64,000 nt of DNA from the NCBI GenBank assembly GCA_903813345.2, contig CAIIXF020000001.1:2418001-2482000 (forward strand), in the 5' to 3' direction. Shown here piece after piece: positions 3,301 through 25,135 of the stretch. Position 1 is the first letter of the stretch. Each line of letters starts with the position of its first letter. The stretch is from Owenia fusiformis (lineage: Eukaryota). Below the pieces are notes generated by a model that was not told where the DNA came from, made no database searches, and was given only the letters and a program-made list of their open reading frames with translations. A program made the position numbers and the translations under genes.

Positions 3301-4646
3301 CTTGAACTGACTGCGCTCTTGAACTGACTGCGCTCTTGAACTGACTGCGCTCTTGAACTGACTGCACTCTTGAACTGACTGCGCTCTTGAACTGACTACA
3401 CTCTTGAACTGACTGCGCTCTCGAATTGACTACGCTCTTGAACTGACTACACTCTTGAACTGACTGCGCTCTTGAACTGACTACATTCTTGAACTGACTG
3501 CGCTCTTGAACTGACTACACTCTTGAACTGACTAAGCTCCTGCTAAATGGATGCATGAACAATCGATGACCATGCTCTGACTGTGCATTATTTAGTTTTT
3601 CATCAATGTTCATTCTATTATGGAAATATGTTTGTTAAATGTTAGCCTTTAATATGCTGTTTGCTAATGCCTTGGTCACATTTGCTTCGATTTTCACTAC
3701 GGCGCCCAGCTGATTGAGTATTTTGTTCAAAATTGAATACAATATTGAGCAAAACACTCAATCAGCCAGGTGCCGGCCGATGGATCGGAGCAAATGTGAC
3801 CCAGGCATTAATGGGAGCCTTTATTATGTTGCAGGTCCTCCTATAAATAAAGCCAGATTGTATCAAGCCCAAAATAAATATTCCAGGCTAGAGTATGTCA
3901 TATATCGAGTTAACATCTGAATATCTGCATTTTTGTTTTCTGCTTAGTTCTGCATACCTTATATAACATGTATAATGTTGTGTTTGGATTTATGCACCAA
4001 ATGATGCTTTTAGGCACCAAATGCTGTTTTTCTCTTACTTGAACATTTGCCTTGATCTGTGACAAGTGGACTGTTTTGTAATTATCATTCAATTTTAATA
4101 TTAACTTTTACATTAATATTTATTCTTTGGTCACTTGGTAACTACTAATTGATACTAATTCAATGAGCCTGATAAAGGCAATGATGGGTATTACTAATTC
4201 TTTAATTAATAATGATGGGCATACATACATGTATTATTCTTTCCCTAATGTAGTGCAACTTTCTCCAGCATAAACCTGCAAGCTTTTCGACATCACATTC
4301 TCTGACTTGAACCTTCCATGTTAACATATTTATCTTCTGATCTGAATAAACGGTATGAATTATAGTTTAATACTAGTGTGTAGAAATCAAATGACTTTAA
4401 AAGAGATATGCGATTTTAAACAAAAACATAGGCTACAATAACATTAATATACGCTCTTCATATCAGAGCATATTTAATAATGCATTTTCTTTTCCACTTG
4501 CAGGGCCTCCGATTAACAAAGCAAGGCTATTTGAGGCTTATCAGAAAAATTCCAACAAACATAGAGTGTCGTCAACAGAAGAAAGAGAAGCCTTACTCAA
4601 GAGTGCTATCAACAGTGATAGTGCAAAAAGATATGAGGCTATATGA
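383..4646 (+). CDS. NPC1: NPC1 (Niemann-Pick C1 lysosomal cholesterol transporter), 3' part. Exons 383-670, 1381-1612, 1934-2047, 2303-2465, terminal exon B 4504-4646 (alternative terminal exon A 3835-3920)
   Basis: Spliced translation GHAAYGTAV...[12 protein letters not shown]...[17 protein letters not shown]...[29 protein letters not shown]...[67 protein letters not shown] matches the NPC1 C-terminus. All introns are GT-AG with consistent phases. The tail has the dileucine motif EREALL. A likely polyA signal AATAAA at 7567-7572 is followed by a GT-rich tract. Confidence 0.96.
3103..3537. repeat. 17-bp minisatellite (TGACTGCGCTCTTGAAC) x about 25
   Basis: Perfect tandem copies that degenerate toward the 3' end. 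It explains the spurious 17-aa-periodic ORF at 3071-3367. Confidence 0.97.
3665..3810. mobile_element. Palindromic MITE, PIF/Harbinger-like (TAA/TTA ends)
   Basis: taatgccttggtcacatttgc ... gcaaatgtgacccaggcatta; the interior is also self-complementary (ctgattgagt...actcaatcag). Confidence 0.75.
3835..3920 (+). CDS. NPC1: NPC1 alternative terminal exon A ([28 protein letters not shown])
   Basis: Acceptor ttgcag at 3829-3834, in the phase that matches the donor after 2465. It encodes the same GPPINKARL start as exon B, using different synonymous codons. AATAAA at 4345-4350 lies between exons A and B. Confidence 0.75.
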
Positions 4647-5479
4647 GAAAATATTGAAACTAGAAAATCAAAAAACAGACTCTTATGTGCAAGGACTGGT
4701 TCAACTTCACTTGTGAAATTTAAGAGCTGATGACCAAACTTTCATCAGGGACTGAAAACTGAAATTAAAACTTCATATTGGGTAAGATATAACTCAGATG
4801 TTTCACTGATCTGAAATGGAATCAATGAAATGGACAAATGCTGGAAGTGATATTCCCAGATTGATTTGTATCATGCCGAAGGGATTGTGTAATACTAGCT
4901 ATGACAAACATTGGTCAGGGATCAAGTGAAGATCATTTCATGATTTACGGGCAACAGTTCTGTAAACAGGGATGAGTGCACTCACCACAATGAAGTGTAC
5001 AATACTAGAGAACAATTTCAGTACTACAAACCATGGTACAATACTAAAGTACAATATCATTGTTCTAATAATGGTAGACTACAGTGCCAGAGAACAATAC
5101 CTCTGTACTAACTACACTGTAGAGTGTAGACTACAATACAAGAGTACAATATTAGAGCACAATACTTGGGTACAATACCAATATCATGTTGGCCTAACAG
5201 CATTGATAATCAAAATGTTTTCAAGTTACAGGAATGGATATGTATCAAAAGTTTTATGACAATTGAAGTAGTAGACGTATAGGGAATGTTGAGAAATATC
5301 TCTCAACCACCTGCTGTAATGTGGTATTTGTACTCCCCATCTTGGCTGTCCACTCCAAAGGAATACTGTTATATTCTGAAGAAAGAATTCAACATTCTTA
5401 GATATTTCATATTAACCTTTTTGTTAATACAATACACAAATATCTTGATCAAAAGCTGTTTTTATTAGTATACTTAAGG

Positions 5480-5648
5480 AATAAAAACCGAGATTTTATG
5501 ATTTATGGCGTAATATATAACCGAAAATTTAATTCTGTTCATTGTTAAAAGACCGAAATCGCGTAGCGATTGAGGTCTTTGGCAATGGCCAGAGTAAAGT
5601 TTGAGGTCATATATTTGATGTAAATCATAAAATCGAGGTCTTTGTTAC
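5480..5648. repeat. Imperfect hairpin element in the NPC1 3' UTR
   Basis: gattttatgattta...aaagaccgaaatcgc-gta-gcgattgaggtcttt...taaatcataaaatc. Confidence 0.7.
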
Positions 5649-7635
5649 GATTCTAATATGATAAACTGTGAAGAAACAAAACTATTTGCATTAATGAATT
5701 TTAGTGGTCATACATACTCCAATACTGACCAGTAAATCAATTGTTCTAGCTATTGTGACGTCACGTGTCATATTAGAATCATATAGAATGCCAAAGATTT
5801 TGTTATTCTTCAAACATTAAATTGTCTGATTATGTTATTGACTCTCTATAAAAGATGATTAATATATTATTAATATATAATATACAATTTACGATGTGGT
5901 CAATGGGAAAGAGGTAAATTGCTTCATAATGGAATTATGCAAACTCCTAGCTCAGATATTAAAGAAATTAAGGCAATTGGACTAGAAGTATTGAGAGTTT
6001 TGCATTCAATGCAATGCGATGATCATAACCTCAGAAGGAAAGCTGGAACGTGCCATGTGAGTCTCAGCCAACATGTTTACAATCATAAACTGATAGCTAT
6101 TAGGAGCATGGGCTTTCAAGAGTCTGTTGAAAGCCCATGTTAGGAGCCACCATTTGTTCTCAGATGATGATTATATAAACGATGTTGAACCACATGGCCA
6201 TTTTCTACATTCCTCAAAGACCATATTGATAAGTCTGAGATCCAAATGGTAGCTGTATAATTATGTACTTGTATATATAGGCCTGCTGTACCATTGATCA
6301 TTCTAATTAAAAGTTGTATTTATTGTGTTTTAAATGGCTGACTAGTAATATGTATATTCCATTGACTGTGTTGGAAATTTTATTGTTTTGGCACAATACA
6401 CAACAATCTCAGTAGCAGTTTGTTCAGTCATTGTACCTCCTTCATTCTCTCTTCAAGATGTTTAATTTATTTATAATTTTGACCATATTCATTTATGTCG
6501 TTCCTGACACTAAATGTCATTAAATCAAAGTTAAATCAAATGTTCAGATATGTGTCACAAATTGAGAGTAAGCGATTTCATCTCAAGTTCAAGTGAGTTG
6601 AATCATTTTCCAGTAAGACTGAGTTTCCTTGGGATAAATGTCCATAGAAAGAGGTATCTGAGAGAATGTACTGAACAAACTGCTATCCAGATATGAATGC
6701 ACAACTCAGGATTCCACTGTTGCTATTAGATTGACACTATTTATTTGAACAGTAACACTCTCAAGTTACTACACTTAGGTTTTACAAACCATTTTTCAGG
6801 CCTTGCAAAATACATATTATTAAAGGATGGGAAAATACTCTTTGAAGAAATCTTGATTTAAAATGTATTATTTAACTTTTAGTTTGTTTTTTTTTATAAA
6901 AAATGTAAATATTTAAAACCTTGAAAAAACAGGATTACAAAATGCTAAACATGTGAAATCTCCAGTAAGATACAGAGCTGTTAATTTTGTGTTAAGAGTG
7001 ACTATGATATGTTAAATATCCTTTTCACATGAACATTTATCATTTTTACATGTAAATCAAACTCAAATCAGAAAAGTATATATTCCTCTATGGAAAGCGA
7101 AGGGAGAATTCCAACTTAGTATTTCTCTTGTTCTATGAAATTGTACATGTAATTCAATTACTCATTGTACATGTGTATGTTATGCTCCCTAAGATATCAT
7201 TTATTCAAACTGTTTTAGTGATATTTTAATTTTGCTGTATTGTAAGGGGGTTGATTTTCACTATACCGATAAGGGGATACAAATATCTTGGTTAGCATAA
7301 TAATAAGCCACTTGTGATCCAACCAATCAATTCATAGGTCATTATATCTGAATATGCACCGAGTACCAAAACCAAGACTGTTATTCGCTTCATGTAGTCG
7401 ATGAGTGCTTGTATGCCATCTTAAATTCTATTAGAAGTATAAATTATATTTAGAAGCTGGTTATTGCCTGGGTCAATCACTGTTTATGTAAGCATCGTTT
7501 TCTTTACAAAAATGTAAATATGATTTCAATTTAGTATTTTTGTAACATATGAATTGTTTTAATAAGAATAAATGTGGATTGGAAAATTAATTCTGTGTGT
7601 GTGTTTTTAAGTCTACTAGAGGTCCTATATTTAGA

Positions 7636-8005
7636 GGTTATGTCACTATCGTGGCATATATGCCCGAGGTCTCAGTGATGGCCCGACCTTGGGAGGGACA
7701 TTGATCTCTGAGAACCGAGGGCATATGTGCCACGATAGTGACATAAGCGATTTATAACATACCTAATATGATGATGTAGACTGGTCAGAGAGTACCGTTT
7801 TTTATAGAATTGACAAACAAATGGTTTGAAAATGATTGAAATGAGTAAAGAAAAATTGCTCGCGCAGTTTTATCTTGGATTGATTGGTTATGACGTCAGC
7901 GCCTTGACCAATCAGAAAGTTAGCGGGCGCAGGCTTTTCACAACTTATATTGGCCCGCTGTCTTGTGTTCACTTTACACTATACATCATCATAGGTATGT
8001 TATAA
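7636..8005. mobile_element. Interspersed element made of a hairpin plus an inner inverted repeat (related copy at 43231-43327)
   Basis: ttatgtcactatcgtggcatata...tatgtgccacgatagtgacataa hairpin, followed by ttataacatacct...aggtatgttataa arms. The same tatgtcacta...tagtgacata stem recurs near 43.2 kb. Confidence 0.6.
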
Positions 8006-8009
8006 TTAA

Positions 8010-10878
8010 ACATTTGGTATGTGAATTTGACAAATTGGTATGGGAACATAATGATATCAGCAGAAGGTTCAGCCTAAGACCCCCGCCAAATTTTGTACAC
8101 AGTGAACCCCCTGGGTGCGGATGTTCTAGACATCAGAGACAACAGAGCTCTCGTAGAATTGGAAGGGTTTCCCAACCAGTACTCCTGGGAGGATTTGACT
8201 GCCAACTGGCGCAATTTTTTAAAGAAACAGGTAATTATAAAACATCAAAAAACACAATACTAAACACTAATACAAGAATCAATGTTATGTCAAATCACCC
8301 CCCCCCCATTCCTTAACTTATACTAATACCAGAACAAATGTTCACCCCTGTCCCCCCATCAGCTGACATATGTATTTATATGAAACATGAAAGTTCAACC
8401 CATGAATACTAGTATGAGACACAAGAAACGGTTCATCTGATTCTCCCAATGTAATGTACCTTTCATGCTGATGCTATGAAATATTCACTCCCCCCCCCCC
8501 TTAATAGGTTGTTCTAATAGCATTGGTGTTACACACAGTACGCCAGTGCGTACCAAATGAATTGGAAAAAAATCAAAAATGTGTTAAAAATGCATTAATT
8601 TGTTTGCACATTTATTGATTATTCTGTATTTGTAGATTCAACTATTAAGTTTTATCAGAAAAGAACTATTTAAAGTTGATAAAAACGCTCAAATTGCATC
8701 AAATAATGTCTTTACAAAGACATTTCCCGGGGAGCATACCCCTGGATGCCCCAAGATGTGTGGCCTTTGGCCACGCGATCCACACATCCACAACTGGGCG
8801 TACCAACTCAAAATGTAGCCCTACGCCCATGAATAGGGGAATTTAAGGCAAAGATCATTACTAATATGGTACAATTATAAACAAATTCAAGTATAAGCTG
8901 TATATTATTATGTCACCACCAAAAGTGGTGACATATTGTTATGGTCTCCGTTTTTTTATGTCACCACCAAAAGTGGTGACATATTGTTATGGTCTCCGTT
9001 TTTTTTGCGACGGCGTCTGGCGGTTGGAGGTTGGCGTCCGGCGGTTGGCGTCCGGCGGTTGGCGTCCGGCGTCTGTAACAATTTCTTACAACTTCCTATA
9101 ACTTAACAAATACTGTTTAGACTGACTTCAATTTTTTTCTAAATCATCTACATGTTCTCAGAAGTTCAAATCTGACTTTAGATTTGACATTTGACCTTCA
9201 ATGACCTTCTCAAGGTCAAAAAGGTCTTTTTTCAACTTGCTTCACATTGACAATTTTTTTTTTCAAAATCATCTACATGTTCTCAGAAATTCAAATCTGA
9301 CTTTAGATTTGACTTTAGATTTGACCTTCACATCTGACTTTAGATTTGACATTTGACCTTCAATGACCTTCTCAAGGTCAAAAAAGGTCAAAAAGGTCTA
9401 TTTTCAACTTGCTTCAAATTGACTAAATTTTGTTTTCAAAATCATCTACGTGTTCTCAGAAATTCAAATCTGACTTAAGATTTGACATTTGACCTTCAAT
9501 GACCTTCTCAAGGTCAAAAAAGGTCAAAAAGGTATTTTTTCATCTTGCTTCCAATTGAAAAAAAAATTTTTTCAAAATCATCTACATGTTCTCAGAAATT
9601 CAAATCTGACTTTAGATTTGACATTTGACCTTCAATGACTTTCTCAATGTCAAAAAAGGTCAAAAAGGTATTTTTTCATCTTGCTTCAAATTGACTAAAT
9701 TTTTTTTTCAAAATCATCTACATGTTCTCAGAAATTCAAATATGACTTTAGATTTGACTTTAGATTTGACATTTGACCTTCAATGACCTTCTCAAGGTCA
9801 AAAAAGGTCAAAAAGGTCTTTTTTCAACTTGCTTCAAATTGACTATTTTTTTTTCAAAATCATCTACATGTTCTCAGAAATTCAAATCTGACTTTAGATT
9901 TGACATTTGACCTTTAATGACCTTCTCAAGGTCAAAAAGGTCTGTTTTCAACTTGCTTCAAATTGACCAATTTTTTTTTTCAAAATCATCTACATCTTTT
10001 CAGCAGTTCAAATTTGACTTTACAAGTTCTCAGAAGTTCAAATCTGACTTTAGATTTGACCTTTGACCTTCAATGATCTTCTCAAGGTCAAAAAGGTCTT
10101 TTTTTAACTTGCTTCAGATTGAACAATTTCTTTTTTCAAAATCATCTACAAGATCCCAGAAGTTCAAATCTTCAAAAACCTTCTTAAGGTCAAAAGGTAT
10201 TTTCCAACTTGCTTTAAATTGACCAAATTGTTTTAGGTGGTGACATTTTGTCATGTTAATGCCTTGTTCATCCAATGTAAATGCATTATTTTATTATTTA
10301 CAAGTCGTTGACACATATATACTTTCAATCTTATACATTCAGTCTGTCCATGATAAAGTATTTTAATGCAAATAAACATATAGCAGTTATGTATATATAT
10401 ATATTGCAGGAACATTCCTACAGCTCAACATGGGCAACAAAAGAACTGAGACAGAAGTCCAGCAACACCAGAGCATTGCCTCAAGATATATACAGGGTGG
10501 ACCACCCTGTACATATATAATTGGGATATTCGAGAGGGTTGAATATGACAACACATTGTGCCTCAGGTATTGTTCATATAGTATTCGTATGACTTAAACA
10601 TGTTATATGTATGTAAAACATGAAGGTCAGGATGCAAGAAGTATCAGAATATACTAGCCTAAGGATAACATTAAATAATCAGTCAATTATGAAAATAACC
10701 TTTCATGAATGAGTGAACTATCTCATAATGTACAATATTTAGTTTTTTATTTTCCAGATGCAATCATAATGGTCAAGGAGAGACCATGGCAATGCAATCC
10801 GGTAGGGGAGCTCCTCGTGCCTGGACCCACTCACATTTCCTTGACATTTGCTTTGACAAGAGGAAAGAACTGGAGTAA
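8010..10878 (+). pseudogene. Remnants of a spliced ORF with a chromodomain-like segment. Tentative exons about 8010-8230, 10410-10567, 10759-10878
   Basis: The frame starting at 8102 reads VNPLGADVLDIRDNRALVELEGFPNQYSWEDLTANWRNFLKKQ up to a CAG|gtaatt donor (phase 0). The acceptor ttgcag|10410 continues in phase 0 as EHSYSSTWATKELRQK. A further donor follows 10567 and an acceptor precedes 10759. The ORF is broken by a stop or frameshift and by a collapsed Tc1-type TIR footprint (tacagggtggaccaccctgta, about 10491-10511). Confidence 0.35.
8905..10268 (+). mobile_element. DINE-1/HINE-like (Helentron-associated) element with an internal tandem array of about 120-bp units
   Basis: Subterminal inverted repeats atgtcaccacc ... 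ggtggtgacat, a duplicated 48-bp head, a GGCGTCC-type microsatellite at 9010-9075, about 8 tandem units (aatctgactttagatttgacatttgaccttcaatgaccttctcaaggtcaaaa...), and a 3' end ending cttgtt. Confidence 0.7.
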
Positions 10879-13249
10879 GTTTGACCTTTAGCTACCAATA
10901 ATATTGAGGGAGATGAGTACTAGTGTTTCTATGGTCCTCTTTTCTATAGAATATTCCACTTTCACTTTGTCTTATACTTCCATTTCCTGTTCCTCAGGGT
11001 ACACAAAGTTTAATCTCTCTTGCATTGATCTATTAAATGCATCAAGTCCATCTTCTGTGTAGTTGTTAGCTCTCTTTTGTCTCTCAACTTTGTATAATTT
11101 CCCTGGCAATTGATGATTTTCCCATTGCATAATCTGGAATCAGGTCAAAACAACATTTTAAGAACAAGATTTTTTATACAAGAATACATCTGTATAATGG
11201 TTAAGACATTTGGCAAAAATCTTAGTTTGCATTACATGAAACACTTATGCAGCTTAGAGTTTAATTTGAAGGTTTAAGAGTTTAATTTGTTTAATATGTA
11301 GGTCGTACATACAATTTCAAACTGGTAATTTCTTGCTTTTACCAGGAATATAATAATGATTAAAGTTTTCTGTTCATAATTTTTCATTTCAGGTGAATGT
11401 TAATACTTGAAATCAGTACCTGCGAGGAAACCTTGCTATTCACCCCATCCCTTCTGGTGCTGCTCTGGTAAAGCTTATGATGGACATGGTTCTTCTGTTC
11501 AAGACAGTGTGTTCCAAGGCAGTGAATATTTCCATATCTCTGCAGGAAGTATGGAATGTGGTAAACTAGACCTGTAATATATAGATCCAGAAAGGATATT
11601 GTACAATACATCATAACAAATTGAATATATACAAGAAACAAAAAGTGAACACAGATTGTTTAAAGTGTGCGCCAAAGTTTAAAACTGCGCAGGCGCACCG
11701 CTCTCGCTAAACTATATAAAGAGATTACCACGGTACACGATTCAGAGGTAAGCCAGGAAGGCGAACGATCTTCGTCTCGTGATGATTTCCCATATAATCG
11801 TAACCAGGGAAGTTTCACCATTGAAATTGAAAATTACTATTAGATATACATTGTAGATGTTATTTATGAAGCTATTTAGTGTTTGCATCAATCAAATGGC
11901 TCATTTTAAACATATAAAAAGTATTTGTGTTTTGTTTCCCAGGGAATTGTATTGTACGTAGTACACACATAAATAGTGTACATTATACAGTACTTGAATA
12001 GCCTGGTTTACATAATATTGAAGGGCATGCTGATTACATGCACACGAGTACATGAATGAAGGCCTAATATTGATATACGTAGCTTGCATACCTAAATAAA
12101 AAATAAACTCTTCTAATCCCCTAATGTAAACACGGCGGTATACGTAGCCCGATTTATCGGGGACTTTAAGGATTGCATTGGATATCACACCAAATCAAAT
12201 GGATCACACATCATGTGTGAGTACATGTTAATGAAAATTTATATTCGTTTGAGCGAAGCGAATTAAGAATATAAATACTTTCTATATATGTGCAGTGAAG
12301 TGAAGAAAAGGCATGAATCATGATTTGGTAATGTAGCATGCTGTTCGAGTTGAGCAAAGATTTTTGTGTGTTAGGCCTTGTTTAGTGAGTGAGTTTTATG
12401 AATAGAGAAGTCATTCTGGGCTTGGTCGCCGAACAGTCAACTCCAAAAAATGTTAAGCAAAATTTTTTAAAAAGCTATTTCTGCATTCAAACAGAGTTGA
12501 TCTATGATTGGGTCTGATGGGTTGAGAGGTGGGGTTATACCTTTCCATAGGGCATCGACTTCAGTCGAATAGCATCTTTGGTTTTAATGGTGATCAACCA
12601 CCTTGATATCAATCAGGCAACAATTAAACGTTGCATACAACCTGTTTTACTAATTGTACAATATACCCGGCACAGTTTCTGCCATATGTACACGTATACT
12701 AGGATTTACAATGAGCAGGCCATGCAAACAGTCTTACAAAACGATATCTATTAAAAGTATTGTAAAGATCTTGTCACATGTACACATATACTAGTATTTA
12801 CAAATAAAGGGTAGCGACCACAAGCCAAAGCTAGATCTAAATTAAAGCTGTGTTGTGTTGTGTATCATGCCGTGTACGTAACGTAACGTACAGAATAGAA
12901 AACATATTTTATAAATTGAGGATTGATTGAGTGAATTGCCAACTAGACAATGTCTCAAATAGTCAGAAATCCAAAGGAATAGCCTGGATAGTTTCTTTAC
13001 TTGTATTTACACATGCACTTACATTCCAAAGTGTCTGGATGGTTTCAACGAACAGTCTAAAAGTCCCATTTGCCATATGTTGTTGCTGTCTTCCAAGTAT
13101 CTGAAGACATGAATGTGAATAAATGTAAAATTTACTAAATCAAATATATTTTAATATTTTTCTATTAGATAAGATATATGATAAATCATTAGGATATTTG
13201 TTAGGATATCCTTAAAAAGGGACTGAATAGATGTAAGGGGTTCATGGTA

Positions 13250-13801
13250 AACCAATTCTGTTCGTTCTCCCAACAAGTGGAAGTTGCAGACATTGACATC
13301 GGATGGTCCAATCATGTTGTTTATGGACCATCATGATATGAGCTCATTTTTGAATCATTACATTTTCCAACAAGATGGAGCTCCAAGTAATAGATCCCAC
13401 AAGAGTGTCAAATGTTTAAAGGAATCAGTCCCTTAAGGACAGAATTGTTGAGAAGTGGAATTCATTGTCTCAACATGTCAATGATGCTTTGACCAGTTTG
13501 GCCAAAATTGAGGGCTATAATTGATCAAAATGGTGGCAAATTAAGCGTCTGATTATGTAAATCAAGTTGACAAAAAACTTGGTTTTTGGAAGTTTTCGAA
13601 AACCCGTTTTGAAACGAAAATGACATCATTTATATTATGGATGCTGGTTTACAGGCATCATAATAAATTTGAACTTATGATATACCAAATCAAAGATAAG
13701 TAAATTCCCTATCCACTGGTATATAATATGACATGTTTTCATGAAGAATATCAATATTTATTTTTGAAATATGAGTGTCCCATTTTTGAAACCACCCTGT
13801 A
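13250..13801 (+). mobile_element. Tc1/mariner remnant inside a transposase intron
   Basis: TTCCAACAAGATGGAGCTCCA encodes the FQQDGAP motif at about 13365-13385. The 3' end tttgaaaccaccctg-ta is typical of a Tc1/mariner TIR followed by TA. Confidence 0.65.
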
Positions 13802-14227
13802 AATGAGAGATGATCAATGTTTTTAAAACATAAATCAGGGACATATTACAATTTTTGGCAATTTGAAAACTTCTGATTCTTTACAATCACTTTATTTTGA
13901 GATTTGAGTGAAACATACTCCAACACCAGCATTCTTTAATCTTTCCACCAGAAGAGCTTTATTCCCATTAGTTGGTAGATCCCTCCTGGCACATTCAGTA
14001 ATCAGCTGCTGTTTGGGCAGGACATTGACTGGTTCCAAACACCGGTCTTCGATGTCTCCAAGGACATTTTGCAAGTTGATCGCTGTCCTTACCTTGTGTA
14101 ACTCATCACCTAAGAATGTATAGTTTATTTATAATTATATAGTTTTTCATTGTTACAAGATACATGCCCTTGATATCAATTTTAGTACAGTGCAACTAGT
14201 TTTCTCATCTTAAGGTAGAACTAGATA

Positions 14228-14513
14228 CTGTAGAAGCAGAAATTATAGCGGGAACATACTATAACGAAATATAGGCCTAGCCAAAATCATAAAACGCGAA
14301 AATAAATTATAGCGTTTTAAGGCTGGTTTATTTTTCTATTTTGGGTTCAAATCGCCAGAAGGATCGGAGAATTTATTTTTATTTTTTTCGTCTTCATATT
14401 TTTTCACCTGTGAAGGTCTAGATGTTATTATCATGGAATTAAATGTAACGATCGAAGTTAGACGCTATTTTTTCGCTATAATATCTTCCTCGTTATAATT
14501 ACTGCTTCTACAG
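14228..14513. mobile_element. MITE with TA target duplication
   Basis: ta|ctgtagaagcagaaattatagcg ... cgttataattactgcttctacag|ta. Confidence 0.75.
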
Positions 14514-16629
14514 TATATATGCAAGCAACATCTACAGCTGACATTTTAATGATAAAAATGGTAACCATAAAATAGAAAAATAGTACATTATTGTAAAAAT
14601 CTTTAGTATTCCTGAACACATTTTAGTTAAGAAAACATTAATCAACATGATCAATGTACTTCTTTCTTTTTACATTTTACTACTGTTTCAAAAAGAGGCT
14701 CTAGGAGTTTTCTTATCTAAGAACAGTATTATTTACAATATCTGTACATCGTTACTGATATGGGAGATTGATACGATATAGGTATGATTTAAGATTTATT
14801 TACCATTTAGGGAAGAAGATTTTCGAATGGATTTGCTGCCGACTGTGGCTTCCTTGTCCTGCCAGAAGTGGAATTTGACATCAAATTGAGCATTTCCGCG
14901 CAGAGTTGGTCTTCTAAGTTTTGTACCATGACCCATACAATCACCTTCATTAAATTAATCAATTTAATTAAGTTATTTTACACTTTATATAAACTATATA
15001 TATACATATTATTACATCTTTGATTTTGACTAATGATGCCAAATACTCTCAAGGTTCAAGGTAACCTCAGAGTAAATTTTCAGGAAAATTAGTATTTTAT
15101 GATTTAAACTTATACTAACCAACACTGCCTTGTCAGCCACTCTATGAATAATTTATTGGACTAACTTATTCCTTACCTGGTTCAGAAGCTTTTCTGCGAT
15201 TCTCATATCCATGTGTAAGGTGTCGGGAATTATGGAGGAGAATTCAATCGGAAGGAGGGGTTGCCTCACATGGCGGCCCCTTTCGGGGGATTTTCCACAT
15301 TCAAGTAATGGCAGATACTTTGAAGTGTCCTGCTCACCTGCATGTACCATATTAAATTATGTGAAAATTATCCTAATAGCCCCCATATGTGCCTTCATTG
15401 TCCAATGAGTCTTAAGTTATTTCCTGTGCCAATGATATTTTTTGTAAGTGAAACAGATACGAAATGGTTACTTTTTCACACAAAGTTTACATTTATGACT
15501 ATCCTGTATTTATATTAGCTTCATTATACTCAAATGAAATAAATATTAACACTCACTTCCAAAGTTGCTGATTTCCGCCTTTGTGCAGTGACACCATATA
15601 CAGAAATATTTGGAATTGGCGGGACTGAGGCCCATTATGATGGCACTATCCTTCCAGTCACATTCCATTTTCCTGTTAAGACATGTAACAGTAAAGTCAT
15701 ATAAAAATTAATAATGATCCTTTAATACTGAGTAAGATCTTTATCTGGCAAAATTCGGTTACAATTTCAAATATTAATCGGAAATGAAACAATTGCTTAT
15801 GATAACATACAATACAGACTTACTCAATTAATTATTTTTCTAATAATATGGTTTACTTCTATATTTCATTGTGAATTTTATTTATGAATGACTCTACATC
15901 AATGCTTTGAATAAGTCCTACCAAAAAACTGAAATGTGTCGAGCTCATCAAAATCCAGGCCATCTCCCTTTAACAAAATCATATCTTGAAACGATGTGTT
16001 GCCACACATGGCCTCATTTTCCACATCCTCTTTTCCTGAAATCAAAACTTTTTGCAATTGCCAATTCTACAAACATTTGACATAAAAATCATCCATGAAT
16101 AAACTTTAATTTGAGAGCTCAATGAAGTAACCAGCATGTTTAAAGGGAGTATCAGATCTTGGGAATGCTCTTAACCATGTTAAGAACAATTGTTTCAACT
16201 TAAGAATATTTTTGACTTATACCATTCCTTGCAATTCTTGTTATCTAAAAATCTCCATCAGAGTGCATACTTTGTTTGATGAAAACAGATGTTTGAAGAC
16301 ACAGGTCTGATTCTACCTTTAAATATCATGAGATAAATGTACTTGGAAACTAATATACAAGATTATCCGACACTTAGTGTACTAAATGTATAATAACATT
16401 AAAGAATAAATTTGATATTTATTGGCAAAATGAATAACCAGAGGATATCGTAACGATATACTCCGGGCAGAGGATATCGTGACGATATACTACCCAATAT
16501 GCGGAGGATATTGTGACGATATACTCCGCTTGTTGATTTCATGCCAAATTGACTCTATTTGGCATGAAATTCATTTTGCAATGATATAATAGATTTATTA
16601 CACTTCTTGTAAGTGTAGGATAATAAGAA

Positions 16630-16747
16630 CATCCTATGATTTTTTTCAGAATATCATTTTAATCTACTCGGTGATATTGATATATGAAATATCAATATCA
16701 CCTCGTAGATAAAAATGATATTCCTCAAAATCATAGGATATCCTATA
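16630..16747. repeat. Hairpin element
   Basis: atcctatgatttt...tctactcggtgatattgatat / atatcaatatcacctcgtaga...aaaatcataggat. Confidence 0.75.
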
Positions 16748-17689
16748 AATATACCTTAGGTCCAGTGACTATTGGCTAGTAGGAAAACAGAAAATAGTCT
16801 TGCTGCAATTAATTTCAAAAAGCTACTCATGCTAATCATGCTATTCGATTTTCTTTAAAAGATCTATCAATAATAGATCAATAATGTTTATTGTTTACTT
16901 AATGTTTAATGTTTATTGTTTACTTAATACTGTACCTTTATAGACTTTATAAACTTAATACTGTTCCTTTATAAAAGTAAAATGGGTGTTCTGTAGTTAG
17001 GTAAAGAGGATTCTGGCTCTTGACACTAAAGGCCCCTTGAACAGAATTGATGTTCATTGTCAGCTTTGCACCATCCGTTTCCAATATAAGCTCTACTGTT
17101 CATATCTAGCATCAGTGCTTTCTTGACAATCTGTTTCAGGTACCGCCTAGCACCATCTTGACATGAACTCTGGAAACAAAAATAAATTAATTCTTAACTA
17201 TCTTGAATTGATATATTTTGAATTTTCTGAACCCAGAATTAGAAAAGGATACAATATTTGTAATACACTATAAATTGCCTTTCATTTGAGTATAATGAAG
17301 TTATAGCAAGATCTCAAAATTAACAAAATTTCCTATTTGCCCCATCCCTAGGGGTAGTGCCAAAAACTTGGAGTAATATATGTCATAAAGATTATTTGGA
17401 TAAACTACCCAAATTCCAAAAAGGAATACTTGAATTACTTTGGTTAGAAATGCAATAAAATACCATCATCTTCAAAGCTAAGGCCATCCAAACTTTGTTG
17501 GCATATTAACTCGGCTTCATTATGCTTCAACTTACAGATTATACTTCATATAATTGTGAAAAATAACCAGTTTTGTGAAAAAGTGTAATGCATTGTAAAA
17601 CTTTCGTTCCGGATATGAAAGGGTGTCCCGAAAGTATGCCCCCCCAGGCAGACATATACCAATGTCTCCATAGTATGTGTCATATACAT

Positions 17690-19521
17690 TTTAAAGTTTC
17701 GCAAGGATCCTGCCATGACCGTGGTAGTGTTATCATGAAATCCTGGTATAACCGTGACAATGTACAGTTGGGGACAAAAATAAATGACAGGTCGATTTTC
17801 GATCACCATTTCCTAATTATGGTGGTCTGAAAGCCCATAATTTCCAATATTGTCTAGATATATATCCCTTAAAATTTGTATATTTTACATTTTGTATAAT
17901 CTCATCCACTGATATATGGCCTCTTGTAAATTCTCTTATTTTTAACATGGGAAATCCTCACTTCAGCAAATCCACCTGTCATTTATTTATGTCCCCAACT
18001 GTAATATTATATTGCAAGGCCTGTCATGACCGTGGTAATATTAAAGCCTGATATGGCCGTGACAATGTTTACGTTCTTGAATGAGATTAGAATTATAGTT
18101 TATGGAAATAAATTATGAGTTAAGTAGTAGCAGTACTACAGTAGTCTAGATTTACATATTTAAGGTAGATAAACGATGAAAGGAGAACCTCCGATAAGGA
18201 GAGCTTTTTAGAAGGACATTGCTTTTTTATTCTGGATGTGATAATCATGGAAGTTTAACACTACATCAGAGATGATCTTAGATATTAGGTGATCTTAGAT
18301 ATTCCCAAAACAACTTGTGTGATATAGAAATTGCTTTTTTAAGAACATTTTTTGCAAGGCAATGAACTCGTTTTTTAAGGTTAGACTCTTTATTTGTGGT
18401 TAAAATCCGTGTATGGCCTGATGGGATAGGCACAAAGTGTCACAGTTGTAAGATACCTATTTATCTGAACTCTCAGAAAATAAAAAGAAATCAATGGGCG
18501 TTTCCCTAGAAATATGTTTTTGAGACCTTTTCCACTCATGAGAATGACGGAATAATAGAACCAATTCATAAAAAATTCTTAAAATATATTTCTGGTGGAG
18601 CGCCCATCGATTTCTTTACGAATACTAAGACTTTGCTTCATTATGTTACTTAGCCACATTCTATTTTGCTCGTACAGTAAAGGAAAAGTTATTGATTTTA
18701 AGCAAAATGTAACGGTTAAATATGGGAAATTGAATTATATCGATTCACAAAAACCGTTCTTCAAACGCACGTTTTAATAATTTGAAGAAAATATTTCAGG
18801 ATGTATAAATTCACTTCATTTGTAAAAGTATGTATGTGCTTTTACATTACCACAGTCATGACAGGCCTTGCAACCATTGTCACTGTCATATCAGGCTTTA
18901 ACATTACCATGGTCATGACAGGCCTTGCAACCATTGTCACGGTCATATCAGGCTTTAACATTACCACGGTCACGACAGGCCCTACTATAGCATTGTCACG
19001 GTCATATCAGGCTTTAACTTTACCACAGTCATGACAGGCCTTGCAATATAGTATAGCATTGTCATTTGTCACGGTCATATCAGGCTTTAACATTACCACG
19101 GTCATGACAGGCCTTGCAATATAGTGTAGTATTGTCACGGTCATATCAGGCTTTAACATTACCACGGTCATGACAGGCCTTGCAATATAGTGTAGTATTG
19201 TCACGGTCATATCAGGCTTTAACATTACCACGGTCATGACAGGCCTTGCAATATAGTGTAGTATTGTCACGGTCATATCAGGCTTTAACATTACCATGGT
19301 CATGACAGGCCTTGCAATATAGTGTAGTATTGTCACGGTCATATCAGGCTTTAACATTACCACGGTCATGACAGGACTAGCAATATAATATAGCATCGTC
19401 ACTGTTATACCAGGCTTTCACGATAACACTACCACAGTCATGGCAGGATCCTTGCGAAACTTAAAAACACTTAATAACACGGTGACGGTTGTGCCAGGCG
19501 TAAGTCTTGCAACAGATAGGG
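17690..19521. mobile_element. Foldback non-autonomous DNA transposon, copy 1, with arms built from tandem subrepeats of about 54-66 bp
   Basis: The left arm (cgcaaggatcctgccatgaccgtggta...) is inverted relative to the right arm at 18840-19521, which ends gtcttgcaacagataggg. It explains the repetitive ORFs 18801-19034 and 19007-19402. Confidence 0.8.
17765..18001 (+). mobile_element. 237-bp Tc1/mariner-type MITE, copy 1, nested in the foldback arm
   Basis: ta|cagttggggacaaaaataaatgacagg ... cctgtcatttatttatgtccccaactg|ta. Confidence 0.88.
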
Positions 19522-20172
19522 TGACCTCAGCTTGACCCCCCAACTTAATTCCTGTGACACATGAAGAGATTCATCCCTTTCTTGCAAAGCAAGTGGAAGT
19601 GCATTCATCTGTTGCCCAGATGGCAGAATTTTTCTTCGGAAATACCCCCATCTGTCATTTATGCCTAGTCTAGCTAATCTAGTTCCAGAACTTGAAAATT
19701 CTGCCATCGTGAAGGTAAATTGCAAATAACTGCTCAAATTTTAACTGAATAATGAAGATTGATAGTGCTCACTGTGGGTTACTCGAGTCTCTAGCTAATT
19801 CTCGCGATCGTGGCCTTAGAAGAAGGTAAACTGTGGGTATTTTTCACATTCAACCAAATATTTGCGAATTTGTATACTCCCGCCATAATTAGTCAATCTT
19901 CCGGTACAAGTGTACTTAGATCTAGATTTGCGCCCTCTATAATTTCAGTATGAAATATACTTGCGACCATCTTTCAACATTGATTCCGTGATCTTCTTGG
20001 TTTTAAAATCACAACAAGGTATGTATATAGGTATATTTGATCAAATGCTAATGCTTTACTATTAGTTCGACATAATTTTACACGAATTAATTGCTTTATG
20101 ATCTCATAATACGCCATTTCAGACCAGACTTCTCTATTATCGCCCACAACCAATGACACAATTCACTCCTAG

Positions 20173-20561
20173 AGTCCATTTCACTGCTTCAGTTCGTCAG
20201 TAGAACGGCAAAAATAAGAAATTGGGAGACCATTGTGCAATAATATGTGGAAAAGTATATTCATAATGTACATGAATGACATTTGTATATCTTGGATTGC
20301 TTCTAGTTTGACTTATAAAGTGTGTGGCCTCTTATATTTGGATGTTTCTCTGCCATGTTATTTTCAATAAGATTAACATGGCTGAAATTCTTTAAATTAC
20401 AAGACGACACAGGCTTATTGCACAAAAAACTAAAAAATCTGAAATATACAAATGTCATTCATGTACATTATGAATATACTTTTCCATATATTATTGCACA
20501 ATGGTCTCCCAATTTCTTATTTTTGCCGTTCTACTGACGAACTGAAGCAGTGAAATGGACT
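20173..20561. mobile_element. MITE with near-perfect TIRs of about 118 bp
   Basis: agtccatttcactgcttcagttcgtcagtagaacggcaaaaataag... matches the inverted ...cttatttttgccgttctactgacgaactgaagcagtgaaatggact. Confidence 0.85.
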
Positions 20562-20732
20562 TTAGACTATCATGGGCTTTCAATGCCCATGCTCCTATGC
20601 AGTGTCCCAGAATAGCACCACAGTTGGCACTATCTATCTTCAGATATTCAGATATTAGATTGATATTAGCCAAATCTGACATCGTTTGCCTCACCCCCTC
20701 AAGCCATCTTTATTTGACATACAGTTGGGAGA

Positions 20733-21720
20733 CCCTATCTGTTGCAAGACTAACGCCTGGCGTAACCGTCACTATGTTATTCGGTGTTTTTTAAGTAGCG
20801 CAAGGATCCTGCCATGACCGTGGTAATGTTATCGTGAAAGCCTGGTATAACCGCGACAATGCTGTATTATATTAAAATGCCTGCCATGACCGTGGTAGTG
20901 TAATCGTGTAAGCCTGGCGCGACCGCAACCTTTATATGACATTAATGACCTCCATGTTTCGCCTGTTGCTGTTGGTATTTTTTATGGATAAATCTTATTA
21001 ATTGATCATTATAGAAAGTATATGCTTTCGAATCGAAGCTCCTTGAATGAGAGTAGAGATATAGTTTGTTCGCAAATTATTTATGAGTAAAAATTAGGGT
21101 TTCGTCGTGAAATTAATACACATTTTTAGTAGTCTTTATTTACATTTAAGGTAGATAAACACGAAGAAAAATTGTCATTACGATGTTCTCATGCTACTTT
21201 AAATACAACCACGGTCATGAGAGGCCTTGCAACTATTGTCACGGTCATACGGGCCTTTAACATTACCACGGTCATGACAGGCCTTGCAATATAATATAGC
21301 ATTGTCACGGTCATATCAGGCTTTAACCTTACCACGGGCCTTTCAATCATTATGACAGTCATATAATATTTACGGCAATATAACATAGCATTTCAATCAT
21401 TATGACAGTCATATAATATTTACGGCAATATAACATAGCATTGTCAAGGTCATGGCAGGCTTTACAAGCATTGTCACGGTCATACTGGGCTTTAACATTA
21501 CCATGGTCATGACAGGCCATGCAACCATTGTCACGGTCATACGGGGCTTTTACATTGCCACGGTCATGACAGGCCTTGCAATATAATACAGCGTTGTCAC
21601 GGTTATACCAGGCTTACAAAATAACACTGCCACGGTCATGGCAGGATCCTTGCGCTACTTAAAAAACACAGAATAACATGGTGACGGTTACACCAGGCGT
21701 TAGTCTTGCAATAGATAGCA
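20733..21720. mobile_element. Foldback element, copy 2 (same family as 17690-19521)
   Basis: ccctatctgttgcaagactaacgcctgg ... ccaggcgttagtcttgcaatagatag. It shares the internal segment tttaaggtagataaac with copy 1. Confidence 0.8.
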
Positions 21721-21725
21721 TGTGA

Positions 21726-21962
21726 CAGTTGGGGACATAAATAAATGACAGGTGGATTTGCTGAAGTGAGGATTTCCCATGTTAAAAATAAGAGAATTTA
21801 CAAGAGGCCACAAATCAATGGATGAGATTATACAAAATGTAAAATATACAAATTTTAAGGAATATGTATCTAGACAATATTGGAAATTATGGGCTTTCAG
21901 ACCACCATAATTAGGAAATGGCGATCAAAAATCGACCTGTCATTTATTTTTGTCCCCAACTG
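21726..21962 (-). mobile_element. 237-bp Tc1/mariner-type MITE, copy 2 (opposite orientation)
   Basis: Near-identical reverse complement of 17765-18001. Confidence 0.88.
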
Positions 21963-23167
21963 TATTTACAGTCTGTTAACTGTTAAAAATAATAACAACA
22001 TAACTTCGACATATGAGTGTTACCTGATGAATGGGACCCTCACGTGCCTTCCAAATGGTAGTACACGAACTCTAGTGTAACTACATCAGCTTATCTTTCC
22101 GTCCGATCAACAATAAGTACAGTTATACAAGAAATGTAAACGAAGTGAAAATATTCCCAAAGATTTTCCGCCAACATAGGGACTCATTTTTAGGTAAAAT
22201 CCCTGATTCAACGATGAAAATTAACGAATAAAGTAGTTCCTGTTTACGGGACCATATTCTTGCCAACTTCAATGGTGTGTATAGTAGGTTTAAGTGTATG
22301 CACTATGGCCATTTGAGGTATGTATGTAAAGCTGAGGCCAAGTACTTTCTAAATGTGCCATTTTTAGAAAAAAATCTCAATTCATTTACTACTAGAATAT
22401 AGGACTACACTTATTTTATATGTCAGTTTTCAATTTAGTACATGTTTCATAATTGAATCTAATGTATTCATGCTAAATGTGTCAAATAAAGATGGCTTGA
22501 GGGGGTTCACTTTGGCAAATTTGGCCAAAAATCACACGAAAAGTGGTCAAAATGGTGAAAAAGTGCATGATTTTGAAAGAATTTTTGGCCATGGGGGGTT
22601 CACCTGAACCCCCTGGCTACGGGCCTGACATGTATATCAGTATAAATACTATGTAGATTAAGTTTGATCACTGTGCTAACTTTATTTAAATATGAATTGC
22701 ATGGTCTTCAGATCCATAATAATTCTATACATATGAGATATCTTACGTTCATATTTGAGAGCACATTCAAATTAAAGATCAATGTGTACATGTAAATTCA
22801 GGGATTATTTCCATTCTTCTATTCGAAACGAAATCAAATTTGTAATTATTGAGAATCTTCAAAAATCGATTCCTATTTTTATGTTTTTGTGAAATATTTA
22901 TTTTTCATCGGTCTGAGAAATAAAATTTGAGAGGCCTGTATGTACTTGGTGTACATGTAGCTATTCCACTGCTTCTTTATGCATAATTGTGGCAAAGATC
23001 CTTCATCAAAGATTCTTTCTTTTGTCTCGATCACAACTTTTAACACATTCTCCGAAAAGTTTGACTCAATGTCATGGAAGAATATTTCTGAAGTATTCCT
23101 AGAAAAGATTTTGATTTTTAGTTATATATTGTTCTAATAACTCTGATTAACTTTTCAGGCCATCAGC

Positions 23168-25135
23168 ATGACTGATTGTGTTGATGTCCAAAATAAACCA
23201 ACTGAAACAGTTGAAGACTCGATGGCCATCTGTCCTCCAGATTCTGAGCAGTTAGAACAGAACATTGAAGAAAAGACTACATTGATTGAAGTGAAATGTG
23301 AACAACCTGAGTATGATGAACATACGGAAGAGTCCCTAAATACAGTCACTGTGTACCAGCCGGATGTCTGGCAACAAAAGGTTACGCCACCTCCAAGAGC
23401 AGCCAAGAGGAAAGCAAGAGACAAATGCAAAAAGATAGCTGTAGATGATTCAGGTATAGATGTCTCTGATCGTACTTTCAGTGTGCGTTCAACATGTAGA
23501 AGAAAGCATAAAACATACTATTGTGAACATTGTACATATGCAATTGGAAAACATGATCTCATGCAAAGTCATTATAGAACGGAACACCCAAAATTGGCCA
23601 AAATGCACAAATGTACATATAAGGGATGTGATTATTCATGTAACTGTCGCAAGTCCATCCAAGCTCATATATTAGCTATACATAAGAACGTCAAGTTCAG
23701 GTGTACACACCCTGATTGTACATTTGAGACAAACAGCAGAACTAAACTGAGGTATCATACCAAATCTCAACATTTAGCTGTGGAGGAATTTAAACCTTGG
23801 AAGTGTGATGAATGCGAGTTAAGATTTTGCCATGTTTATGATTTGAATAGACATCATTATGTACGCCACATGCCGGAGAAGCCATACTCCTGCGATGAAA
23901 AAGACTGCAATTACAAATGTAAATCAACTTGGGAATTGAAAAGTCACAAGTCACAAAGTCACAGTGATATTAGACCATATAAGTGTGGACAATGCGGATT
24001 ACGTACCAAGGTTCTTTCAGATCTTCGAAAACACATGATAAGACATTTGAATGTTCGAGAACACCAATGTGGTATTTGTGATAAGAAATTTATTTGTGCA
24101 GCAGATGCTAAACGACATAGGGATGATATACATAGTGATTTACAAATAAAATGTGAATACTGCCCCTATATTGCCAAATCAAGAGCCAAATTTAGAAAAC
24201 ATTTAGAAAAACATGGTTCAAGGTGGTTCAGTTGTGCTCACTGTTCTCAGAAGTATCATTCAAAATCTTCTCTCAAACAGCACATAAGAACACATGATCC
24301 GGATCGTCCCTTTCCTTGTCCCATCTGCGAGGAATACGTAGCAACTTCTGTATTCACATTAGTTGTTCACATTGGAAAACTTCATAAAGATTATCGGTAC
24401 CTGTATGAGTGCATTGTCTGTAGGAGATCTTATAACAAAAGTTGCCAACTGAGGCAACATTTTGAAACTGATTTACACAAGATGACTAAAGCAGCTGATC
24501 CCGCACTAAAGGATGAACCAGATGATCTGTATAAAGGACTCATGGAAAAGCTTTACTCAGTCAATGGAGTAAAGAAAACTACTAAGAAAAAAGAGAAATA
24601 CAAATGGGCAGACAACTTAAAGGGCCCTCGTCCCAAAATCAGTCCTAAGTCAAATGATTTAGTCAATGGTACATCCAAGGCGATACCTAAGAAACCTCCC
24701 AGCCGCAAGAGGAAAACATGTGAGAAGGCTACAAAATCCAGAAAAGGAAATACTCGCAATAAAAAGAGAAAGGGACAAATGTCTAATGAAAAAAAAGATT
24801 CTCATGTAGGAACTGTTAAGGAAGAATGTGAAGATACACCTATACATGATGAAAGCAAAAGAAAGCGGAAATCCAATAACTGTTATGCAACTGCAACTGA
24901 GAGCACTTGTGAAAATACTGATCAAATGGATGTACTCTCAAATGGTCACGAGAGCCATCCGACAGAATCAAGTGAAAAATTATTATCTGATTTTGTGAGC
25001 AACGCAGATGTAGGAACTCTTGAGAATGTGGTTGTTAAGATTGAGAAAGATGATGGTGAACAGGAAATGTATGGTTTCCAAGTTTTACCAAGTGAAACAC
25101 TGGAGCAAAGAGAGATAGACCCTTTAATGACATAG
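23168..25135 (+). CDS. C2H2 zinc-finger protein (655 aa, about 11 fingers, basic low-complexity C-terminus)
   Basis: Intact ORF with repeated CxxC/CxxxxC...HxxxH/HxxxxH fingers and EKPY/IRPY/DRPF-type linkers. An acceptor ttttcag at 23152-23158 lies just before the ATG. A probable non-coding upstream exon ends at 22317 (gag|gtatgt). Confidence 0.93.
   Translation: MTDCVDVQNKPTETVEDSMAICPPDSEQLEQNIEEKTTLIEVKCEQPEYDEHTEESLNTVTVYQPDVWQQKVTPPPRAAKRKARDKCKKIAVDDSGIDVSDRTFSVRSTCRRKHKTYYCEHCTYAIGKHDLMQSHYRTEHPKLAKMHKCTYKGCDYSCNCRKSIQAHILAIHKNVKFRCTHPDCTFETNSRTKLRYHTKSQHLAVEEFKPWKCDECELRFCHVYDLNRHHYVRHMPEKPYSCDEKDCNYKCKSTWELKSHKSQSHSDIRPYKCGQCGLRTKVLSDLRKHMIRHLNVREHQCGICDKKFICAADAKRHRDDIHSDLQIKCEYCPYIAKSRAKFRKHLEKHGSRWFSCAHCSQKYHSKSSLKQHIRTHDPDRPFPCPICEEYVATSVFTLVVHIGKLHKDYRYLYECIVCRRSYNKSCQLRQHFETDLHKMTKAADPALKDEPDDLYKGLMEKLYSVNGVKKTTKKKEKYKWADNLKGPRPKISPKSNDLVNGTSKAIPKKPPSRKRKTCEKATKSRKGNTRNKKRKGQMSNEKKDSHVGTVKEECEDTPIHDESKRKRKSNNCYATATESTCENTDQMDVLSNGHESHPTESSEKLLSDFVSNADVGTLENVVVKIEKDDGEQEMYGFQVLPSETLEQREIDPLMT

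Follow-up and report, generated by a model that had tools for sequence, protein, structure and literature searches.

RAG1 and its transposon relatives share a pattern of catalytic and zinc-binding residues. Mouse RAG1 has the acids D600, D708 and E962 and binds zinc through C727/C730 and H937/H942 (PMC4914335). A cysteine pair, C(2)C, after the second Asp and a histidine pair, H(3-4)H, before the Glu are common to EnSpm, Mirage, Chapaev, Transib and RAG1, and in the CMCT clade most elements have 5′-CA..TG-3′ ends and a target duplication of 2-5 bp (PMC12730594). Canonical Transib elements have a 5-bp duplication and terminal repeats resembling recombination signal sequences (RSS) (PMC1131882). 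Chapaev and Chapaev3 transposases, of the CMC superfamily, are treated as distant clades of the Transib superfamily by PMC4411706; they are animal elements defined by an N-terminal Chapa zinc-finger domain, with cores only distantly related to Transib. RAGL transposons of protostomes have a multi-exon transposase gene with a convergent RAG2-like (kelch, PHD) gene adjoining it, and fossil copies are common (PMC7204232). Here we describe a minus-strand locus at 10972-17169 of a 64-kb stretch of Owenia fusiformis DNA (contig CAIIXF020000001.1, positions 2,418,001 to 2,482,000; hereafter the window), an AT-rich animal sequence with a G+C content of 29-41%.

An earlier sequence-only reading of the window had proposed a hidden, multi-exon RAG1/Transib/Chapaev-like transposase fossil with a complete D-D-E triad. 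The peptides on which it relied (ETDGAK, ECDWK...GL...YFCIWC, DTLHMDMR and ...LEQKNH) were all found in place in the minus-strand translation. The exons follow one another in the co-linear order D, D-x18-C-x2-C, D-x2-H and H-x4-H-x19-E, which is the order of the RAG1 core and of Transib. In ECDWK...GL...YFCIWC the Asp codon is at 15659-15657 and the Cys codons are at 15602-15600 and 15593-15591; in DTLHMDMR the Asp is at 15224-15222 and the His at 15215-15213; and in VYHIPYF...LEQKNH the His is at 11560-11558 and the Glu at 11500-11498. The spacings from D to C (19), C to C (3), H to H (5) and H to E (20) equal those of D708/C727/C730/H937/H942/E962 in mouse RAG1 (PMC4914335). The distance from the first to the second Asp is 108 residues in RAG1 and shorter at the locus, about 60-85.

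From this residue signature we consider it probable that a multi-exon DDE transposase of the EnSpm/CACTA-Mirage-Chapaev-Transib(-RAG1) clade, with RAG1-like spacing, survives here as a single-copy relic in decay. Three acids in order and C(2)C after the second Asp are present, as is H(3-4)H before the Glu once the insertion described below is taken out. Since this signature is common to EnSpm, Mirage, Chapaev, Transib and RAG1, the locus is put in that clade and not in RAG1/Transib specifically, and its lineage there may be Transib-like, Chapaev-like or another. The breadth of the label "RAG1/Transib/Chapaev-like" was well judged from the signature, and no sequence similarity to any member was found in the searches described below. 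The claimed triad is there in order. Its motif context suggests that the intact ancestor would have had an RNase H-like centre for cutting and joining DNA, with D (17075), D (15659) and E (11500) as its catalytic carboxylates. A zinc site would have been made up of the two Cys that follow the second Asp and the two His that precede the Glu. The locus would then be a former transposase gene, from which a working protein is presumably no longer made.

Coding pieces were traced by eye and by script on the minus-strand translation from 17169 to 10972 (Table 1). Ten were counted, each a short open frame, with AG before and GT after every piece except at the 3′ end of 17169-17002; the AG acceptors before 14944-14804 and before 12994-12949 are weak. 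Four junctions are in frame: 15557 to 15337, 14804 to 14109, 13919 to 13100 and 11420 to 11133. A public protein of 183 residues, P0006 (source title 'unnamed protein product [Owenia fusiformis]'), covers the 3′ part of the locus. Its model is built from 14944-14804, a portion of the SAP exon, 11571-11420 and the last exon; two traced pieces (13100-13023 and 12994-12949) are missing from it and the SAP motif is cut, so that it represents a truncated open reading frame (ORF) of this locus. Because these 3′ exons are already in P0006, the gene is only partly hidden.

Table 1. Coding pieces, insertion and putative upstream frames of the locus (positions of the window).
Feature	Position	Strand	Basis or remark
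Exon with first Asp (ETDGAK; D codon 17075-17073)	17002..17169	-	Frame change near 17100; 3′ border tentative
Exon offset by one base from the frame of 15672 in the window	15922..16035	-	Border and frame check
Exon with second Asp (15659-15657) and C-x2-C (15602-15591), D to C = 19 residues	15557..15672	-	In frame to 15337
Exon with D-x2-H (DTLHMD)	15177..15337	-	Translation; RNA depth 1.4-1.5, first mate on + only
Speculative 19-nucleotide micro-exon, would bridge 15177 to 14944 in frame	15047..15065	-	By eye only
Exon (..GHGTKLRRPTLRGNAQFDVKFHFWQDKE..)	14804..14944	-	Join to 14109 used in P0006
Exon with SAP motif	13919..14109	-	Pfam SAP, E 2.4e-9, 37 bits (cut-off 23.9); in frame both sides
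Exon (..FRLFVETIQTLWN)	13023..13100	-	In-frame join from 13919; absent from P0006
28-nucleotide spacer, begins GTAAGT, ends AAG	12995..13022	-	Sequence
Coding piece, last codon region = first His (12952-12950)	12949..12994	-	Absent from P0006
1,377-bp insertion	11572..12948	-	8-bp direct repeat GTCTAGTT on both sides; ends read GT...AG
Exon with second His (11560-11558) and candidate catalytic Glu (11500-11498), 20 residues apart	11420..11571	-	100% identical to P0006
Last exon, 53 codons and TAA stop	10972..11133	-	AG acceptor, in-frame join from 11420; present in P0006
Putative upstream ORF (MAEFSS..), first proposed N-terminal piece	19571..19726	-	No Pfam family; runs into repeat at 19522
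Putative upstream ORF, second proposed N-terminal piece	20494..20709	-	Partly overlaps foldback repeat arm

The frame changes and the nested insertion that the sequence-only reading had reported are both present. In another individual, too, the first-Asp exon changes frame, since a contig from DNA run X1 over 17096-17260 is identical to the window. At 15944-15952, X1 has one extra base (15944/15945) and two substitutions relative to the window; the extra base (depth 85.2/85.2, one contig) brings 16035-15922 back in frame with 15672, so that this frame break is allele- or assembly-specific. With one frameshift missing in another individual, the gene is less dead than the word "fossil" implies. 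The junction from 15177 to 14944 is a frame break unless the speculative micro-exon is used. At 28 nucleotides the spacer at 12995-13022 is too short to be a normal intron, and that reading was rejected; it is instead either a break in the frame or what is left of an intron that has shrunk.

Copies of GTCTAGTT lie on either side of the insertion, at 12948-12941 and 11571-11564. Removal of the insertion and one repeat copy restores H-C-L-V-Y-H, and only then does the H-x4-H pair (12952-12950 and 11560-11558) form. DNA word depth in run X1 was 38-168 over the exon bins, one of which (13836-14113, SAP exon) was uncovered, against 1e3-7.7e5 over the surrounding repeats; the interior of the insertion reached 1.4e3 to 2.8e5. 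This contrast marks the exons as single copy and the insertion as repetitive. No second copy of the insertion was found within the window, and none of the gene by tblastn there. Among the differences between individuals that were listed (126 more exist), 15 fall in exons, 11 of them nonsynonymous and 4 synonymous, about a neutral ratio. The frame changes, the splitting of the His pair by an insertion with an 8-bp duplication, and the 11 to 4 exon differences support decay of the gene.

The insertion starts with GT, contributed by the 8-bp repeat, and ends with AG; its acceptor is the one used by P0006, and its donor looks weak. In principle exact splicing could remove it, as with an intron that originated by insertion, and the locus illustrates that an insertion into an exon can come to look like an intron. 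The acceptor at 11572 would also be in frame with an alternative GTAAAG donor at 13001|13000.

About 6% of the raw RNA run X21 was read. Depth was highest at the 3′ end (2.0-3.1) and in the SAP exon was 2.5; the C-x2-C exon had 0.48, the first-Asp exon 0.58 and the Glu exon 0.17. The first mate always lay on the plus strand, with a depth of 0 on the other, which is consistent with a weak minus-strand transcript. In runs X4 and X6, which we guessed to be RNA, contigs run across exon-intron borders and therefore represent unspliced sequence.

Unlike RAG1 and Transib, the locus bears a SAP motif between D-x2-H and the His pair and has many introns, and neither Pfam RAG1 nor any PDB chain gave it a detectable match. 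With Chapaev and Chapaev3 it shares the C(2)C and H(3-4)H signature, and the distance of their cores from Transib would fit the lack of RAG1-model matches here. Their Chapa zinc-finger motifs had no in-frame match upstream of the locus in six frames; near 19600 there is a partial match that needs frame changes. The signature is also that of EnSpm/CACTA and Mirage, yet no EnSpm-type Pfam match was obtained. Neither CA..TG ends with a 2-5 bp duplication nor RSS-like ends with a 5-bp duplication were found flanking the locus. Like the RAGL transposons of protostomes (PMC7204232) it lies in a spiralian host, in a multi-exon and broken form, and it is far more divergent than those RAG1-like genes. 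None of the 18 plus-strand ORFs of at least 55 residues in 3714-10891 matched kelch or PHD, and we therefore find no RAG2-like partner, although short exons could escape such a search.

The N-terminal part proposed in the sequence-only reading was not confirmed. Its piece at 19525-19700 needs two frame changes and has no RAG1 N-terminal zinc motif in frame, and that at 20570-20720 corresponds to an ORF (20491-20709) that overlaps one arm of a foldback element at 20169-20565. The N-terminal motifs sought were H-x3-L-x3-C-R-x-C-G and D-x3-I-h-P-x2-F-C-x2-C, and the published RAG1 N-terminal zinc motifs have no in-frame occurrence anywhere in the window.

The signature was compared with chance by composition-preserving shuffles of the exon peptide, scored for an ordered chain of the RAG1 strings named in the sequence-only reading, with the spacings fixed by published numbering. 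The chain scored 78 (shuffle mean 28.7, standard deviation 7.0, maximum 71), a value reached by 0 of 180,515 shuffles; without the upstream His piece it scored 70, reached by 4 of 187,276, and the bare four-part signature appeared in 3 of 20,000. These numbers flatter the match, and its true significance is weaker, because the motif strings, part of the exon choice and the His-pair join were picked after the sequence had been seen. Even so qualified, the counts make chance alone an unlikely source of the motif chain in this exon set.

That post hoc choice is one of several points that weigh against the transposase reading. When the whole window was translated in six frames, D-x18-C-x2-C turned up 2 times (1.0 expected) and H-x19-E 46 times (32.5 expected), so that bare spacings of this kind arise by chance about once per window. 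Pfam, with its RAG1 and EnSpm-type models, gave no transposase or RAG1 family in 14 exon ORFs, in P0006 or in P0007 (a 289-residue single-frame read-through of 15671-14805 with X at stops); SAP was the only domain with a significant match. A phmmer search of PDB sequences at E<=10 returned nothing relevant for three exons, P0006 and P0007. HMMER with the D-x2-H exon against 1.84 billion representatives gave 5 matches at E<=0.001, all of them tandem-repeat artefacts. Word-index searches found no homologue of the C-x2-C exon, only the locus's own model P0006 for the Glu exon, and 238 candidates for P0006, of which 0 scored. In the part of X21 that was read, two exon bins had no reads, 14804..14944 among them, and no splice joints were listed. 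No inverted ends with a matching target duplication were found around the locus, an absence that carries little weight in a single decayed copy with an undefined 5′ limit, and one of the frame breaks is missing in X1.

The profile similarity that the sequence-only reading led one to expect did not appear for single exons, P0006 or the one read-through against Pfam or PDB sequences, in a comparison of low power. By our estimate, a block of about 30 residues at 30% identity would give about 20 bits, far below the search thresholds. The queries are too short for about 30% identity in short blocks, the negatives therefore have low power, and membership of the clade stays unproven. P0006 had 39 pattern matches in a metagenome scan and one exon had 48 in a viral scan, with no relatives in either. 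In the Atlas there was no usable match for the D-x2-H exon. The C-terminal part of P0006 fell near unnamed eukaryote clusters (0.92-0.94, commonest in Cnidaria and Chordata) and a cnidarian 'SAP domain-containing protein' cluster (template modelling score, TM, 0.55), both to be taken as leads only. The nearest cluster with any Pfam family carries DUF4218 (0.75, below the tool's lead level), which we take to be an EnSpm-associated family. The AlphaFold2 model of P0006 was unusable (mean predicted local distance difference test score, pLDDT, 33.9). Among the papers searched, none names both 'Chapaev' and 'SAP domain', or both 'N-RAG-TP' and 'Chapaev'. Annelid or similar sequences may already be in the species lists of PMC9435367 or in the alignments of PMC7204232 or PMC12730594.

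These results have to be weighed against other explanations. It is fairly unlikely, in our judgement, that the locus is an unrelated SAP-motif gene or pseudogene whose transposase signature arose by chance. Such an origin would agree with the negative Pfam profile, PDB and fold tests (the last with an unusable model), with SAP as the sole significant domain match, with the frequency of bare D/C/C and H/E spacings in the window, and with the fact that the locus was picked from a scan of very many windows. Against it stand the shuffles, none of which attained the ordered chain score and very few the bare signature, and the equality of all four spacings to published RAG1 numbering. A RAGL transposon proper, that is, a RAG1-like gene paired with a RAG2-like gene, is close to refuted: RAGL elements are known in protostomes (PMC7204232) and the residue spacing is that of RAG1, but the convergent position at 3.7-10.9 kb holds no kelch or PHD ORF among the 18 of at least 55 residues, and there is neither a Pfam RAG1 match, nor a relevant phmmer match to PDB chains, nor an in-frame N-terminal zinc-finger motif.

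Another competitor is a host gene domesticated from such a transposase, still functional or recently disabled, of which the window would be an allele or an assembly with private errors. We regard this as distinctly unlikely. The single copy, the four GT-AG junctions in frame, the strand-specific RNA, the partial annotation as P0006, the mending of the 16035-15922 frame break in X1 and the alternative GTAAAG donor in frame to 11572 all speak for it. Set against these are the 11 nonsynonymous and 4 synonymous differences among those listed, the first-Asp frame change that X1 shares, an insertion that parts the two His and has a weak donor of its own, the lack of a homologue in the protein searches made, and the form of P0006 itself, a truncated 183-residue ORF from which two exons are missing and in which the SAP motif is cut. 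A decaying transposase relic remains the reading that we prefer.

A wider proposal would join several of these threads: an undescribed lineage of the Transib/Chapaev clade with SAP between D-x2-H and the His pair, many introns and relatives in Cnidaria, Mollusca and Annelida, present here as a single copy between domestication and loss, with some alleles maybe still open and the exon insertion perhaps removable as a new GT..AG intron. Taken as a whole, this is improbable. RAG1 arose from this transposase clade, whose divergent members are useful for working out when and in what sequence RAG1 acquired its domains; if the proposal were true, the RAG1-clade tree would gain a branch, a lineage of spiralians and cnidarians that carries SAP. 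At present the locus offers a single broken copy, supported only at the level of motifs, and its chief value is as a seed for a profile or phylogeny search. Such relics are expected in invertebrate genomes, which makes the finding ordinary to moderately interesting. Transib-superfamily elements are already recorded from the annelid Helobdella robusta, which is listed in the legend of a tree of the superfamily that includes Chapaev and Chapaev3 (Fig. 2 of PMC4411706). Only two points are unusual: the presence of a SAP motif and the failure to retrieve any homologue.

The flanks of the gene are rich in repeats. Immediately downstream of its 3′ end, 9327-10171 is a 136-bp tandem repeat of about 6 copies, and upstream of 17170 lies a nest of repeats. 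The segments 17763-18012 and 21715-21964 are inverted copies, 250 nucleotides long and 96% alike, of a very high-copy short element whose terminal inverted repeats begin CAGTTGGGGACA, with TA on both sides and DNA word depth to 7.7e5. Tandem arrays of 57-, 66- and 132-bp units with the core CACGGTCATGACAGGCCTTGCAA occupy 18838-19418 and 21208-21581 and lie within a larger repeat family, the arms of which are at 19354-19522 and 20732-20903. The foldback element at 20169-20565 is 397 bp long and 84% self-complementary, with 130-nucleotide arms 96% alike.

Elsewhere in the window, long open frames at 2946-3514 (minus strand) come from the tandem repetition of a 17-residue unit, with three overlapping frames left open. 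Three short frames at 1361-2485 (plus strand), for which Pfam gave only a weak ACR_tran match (E 0.41), presumably resemble C-terminal exons of an NPC1/Patched-type membrane protein. A 662-residue open frame at 23147-25135 (plus strand) encodes C2H2 zinc fingers (Pfam zf-H2C2_2 2.3e-13, zf-C2H2 1e-8), and an unbroken 369-residue frame at 54753-55862 (minus strand) belongs to the zinc-type alcohol dehydrogenase family (ADH_N 1.7e-30, ADH_zinc_N 4.4e-13). A 581-residue frame at 57699-59444 (plus strand) has a reverse transcriptase domain (RVT_1 2.9e-26) and is probably a non-LTR (long terminal repeat) retrotransposon.

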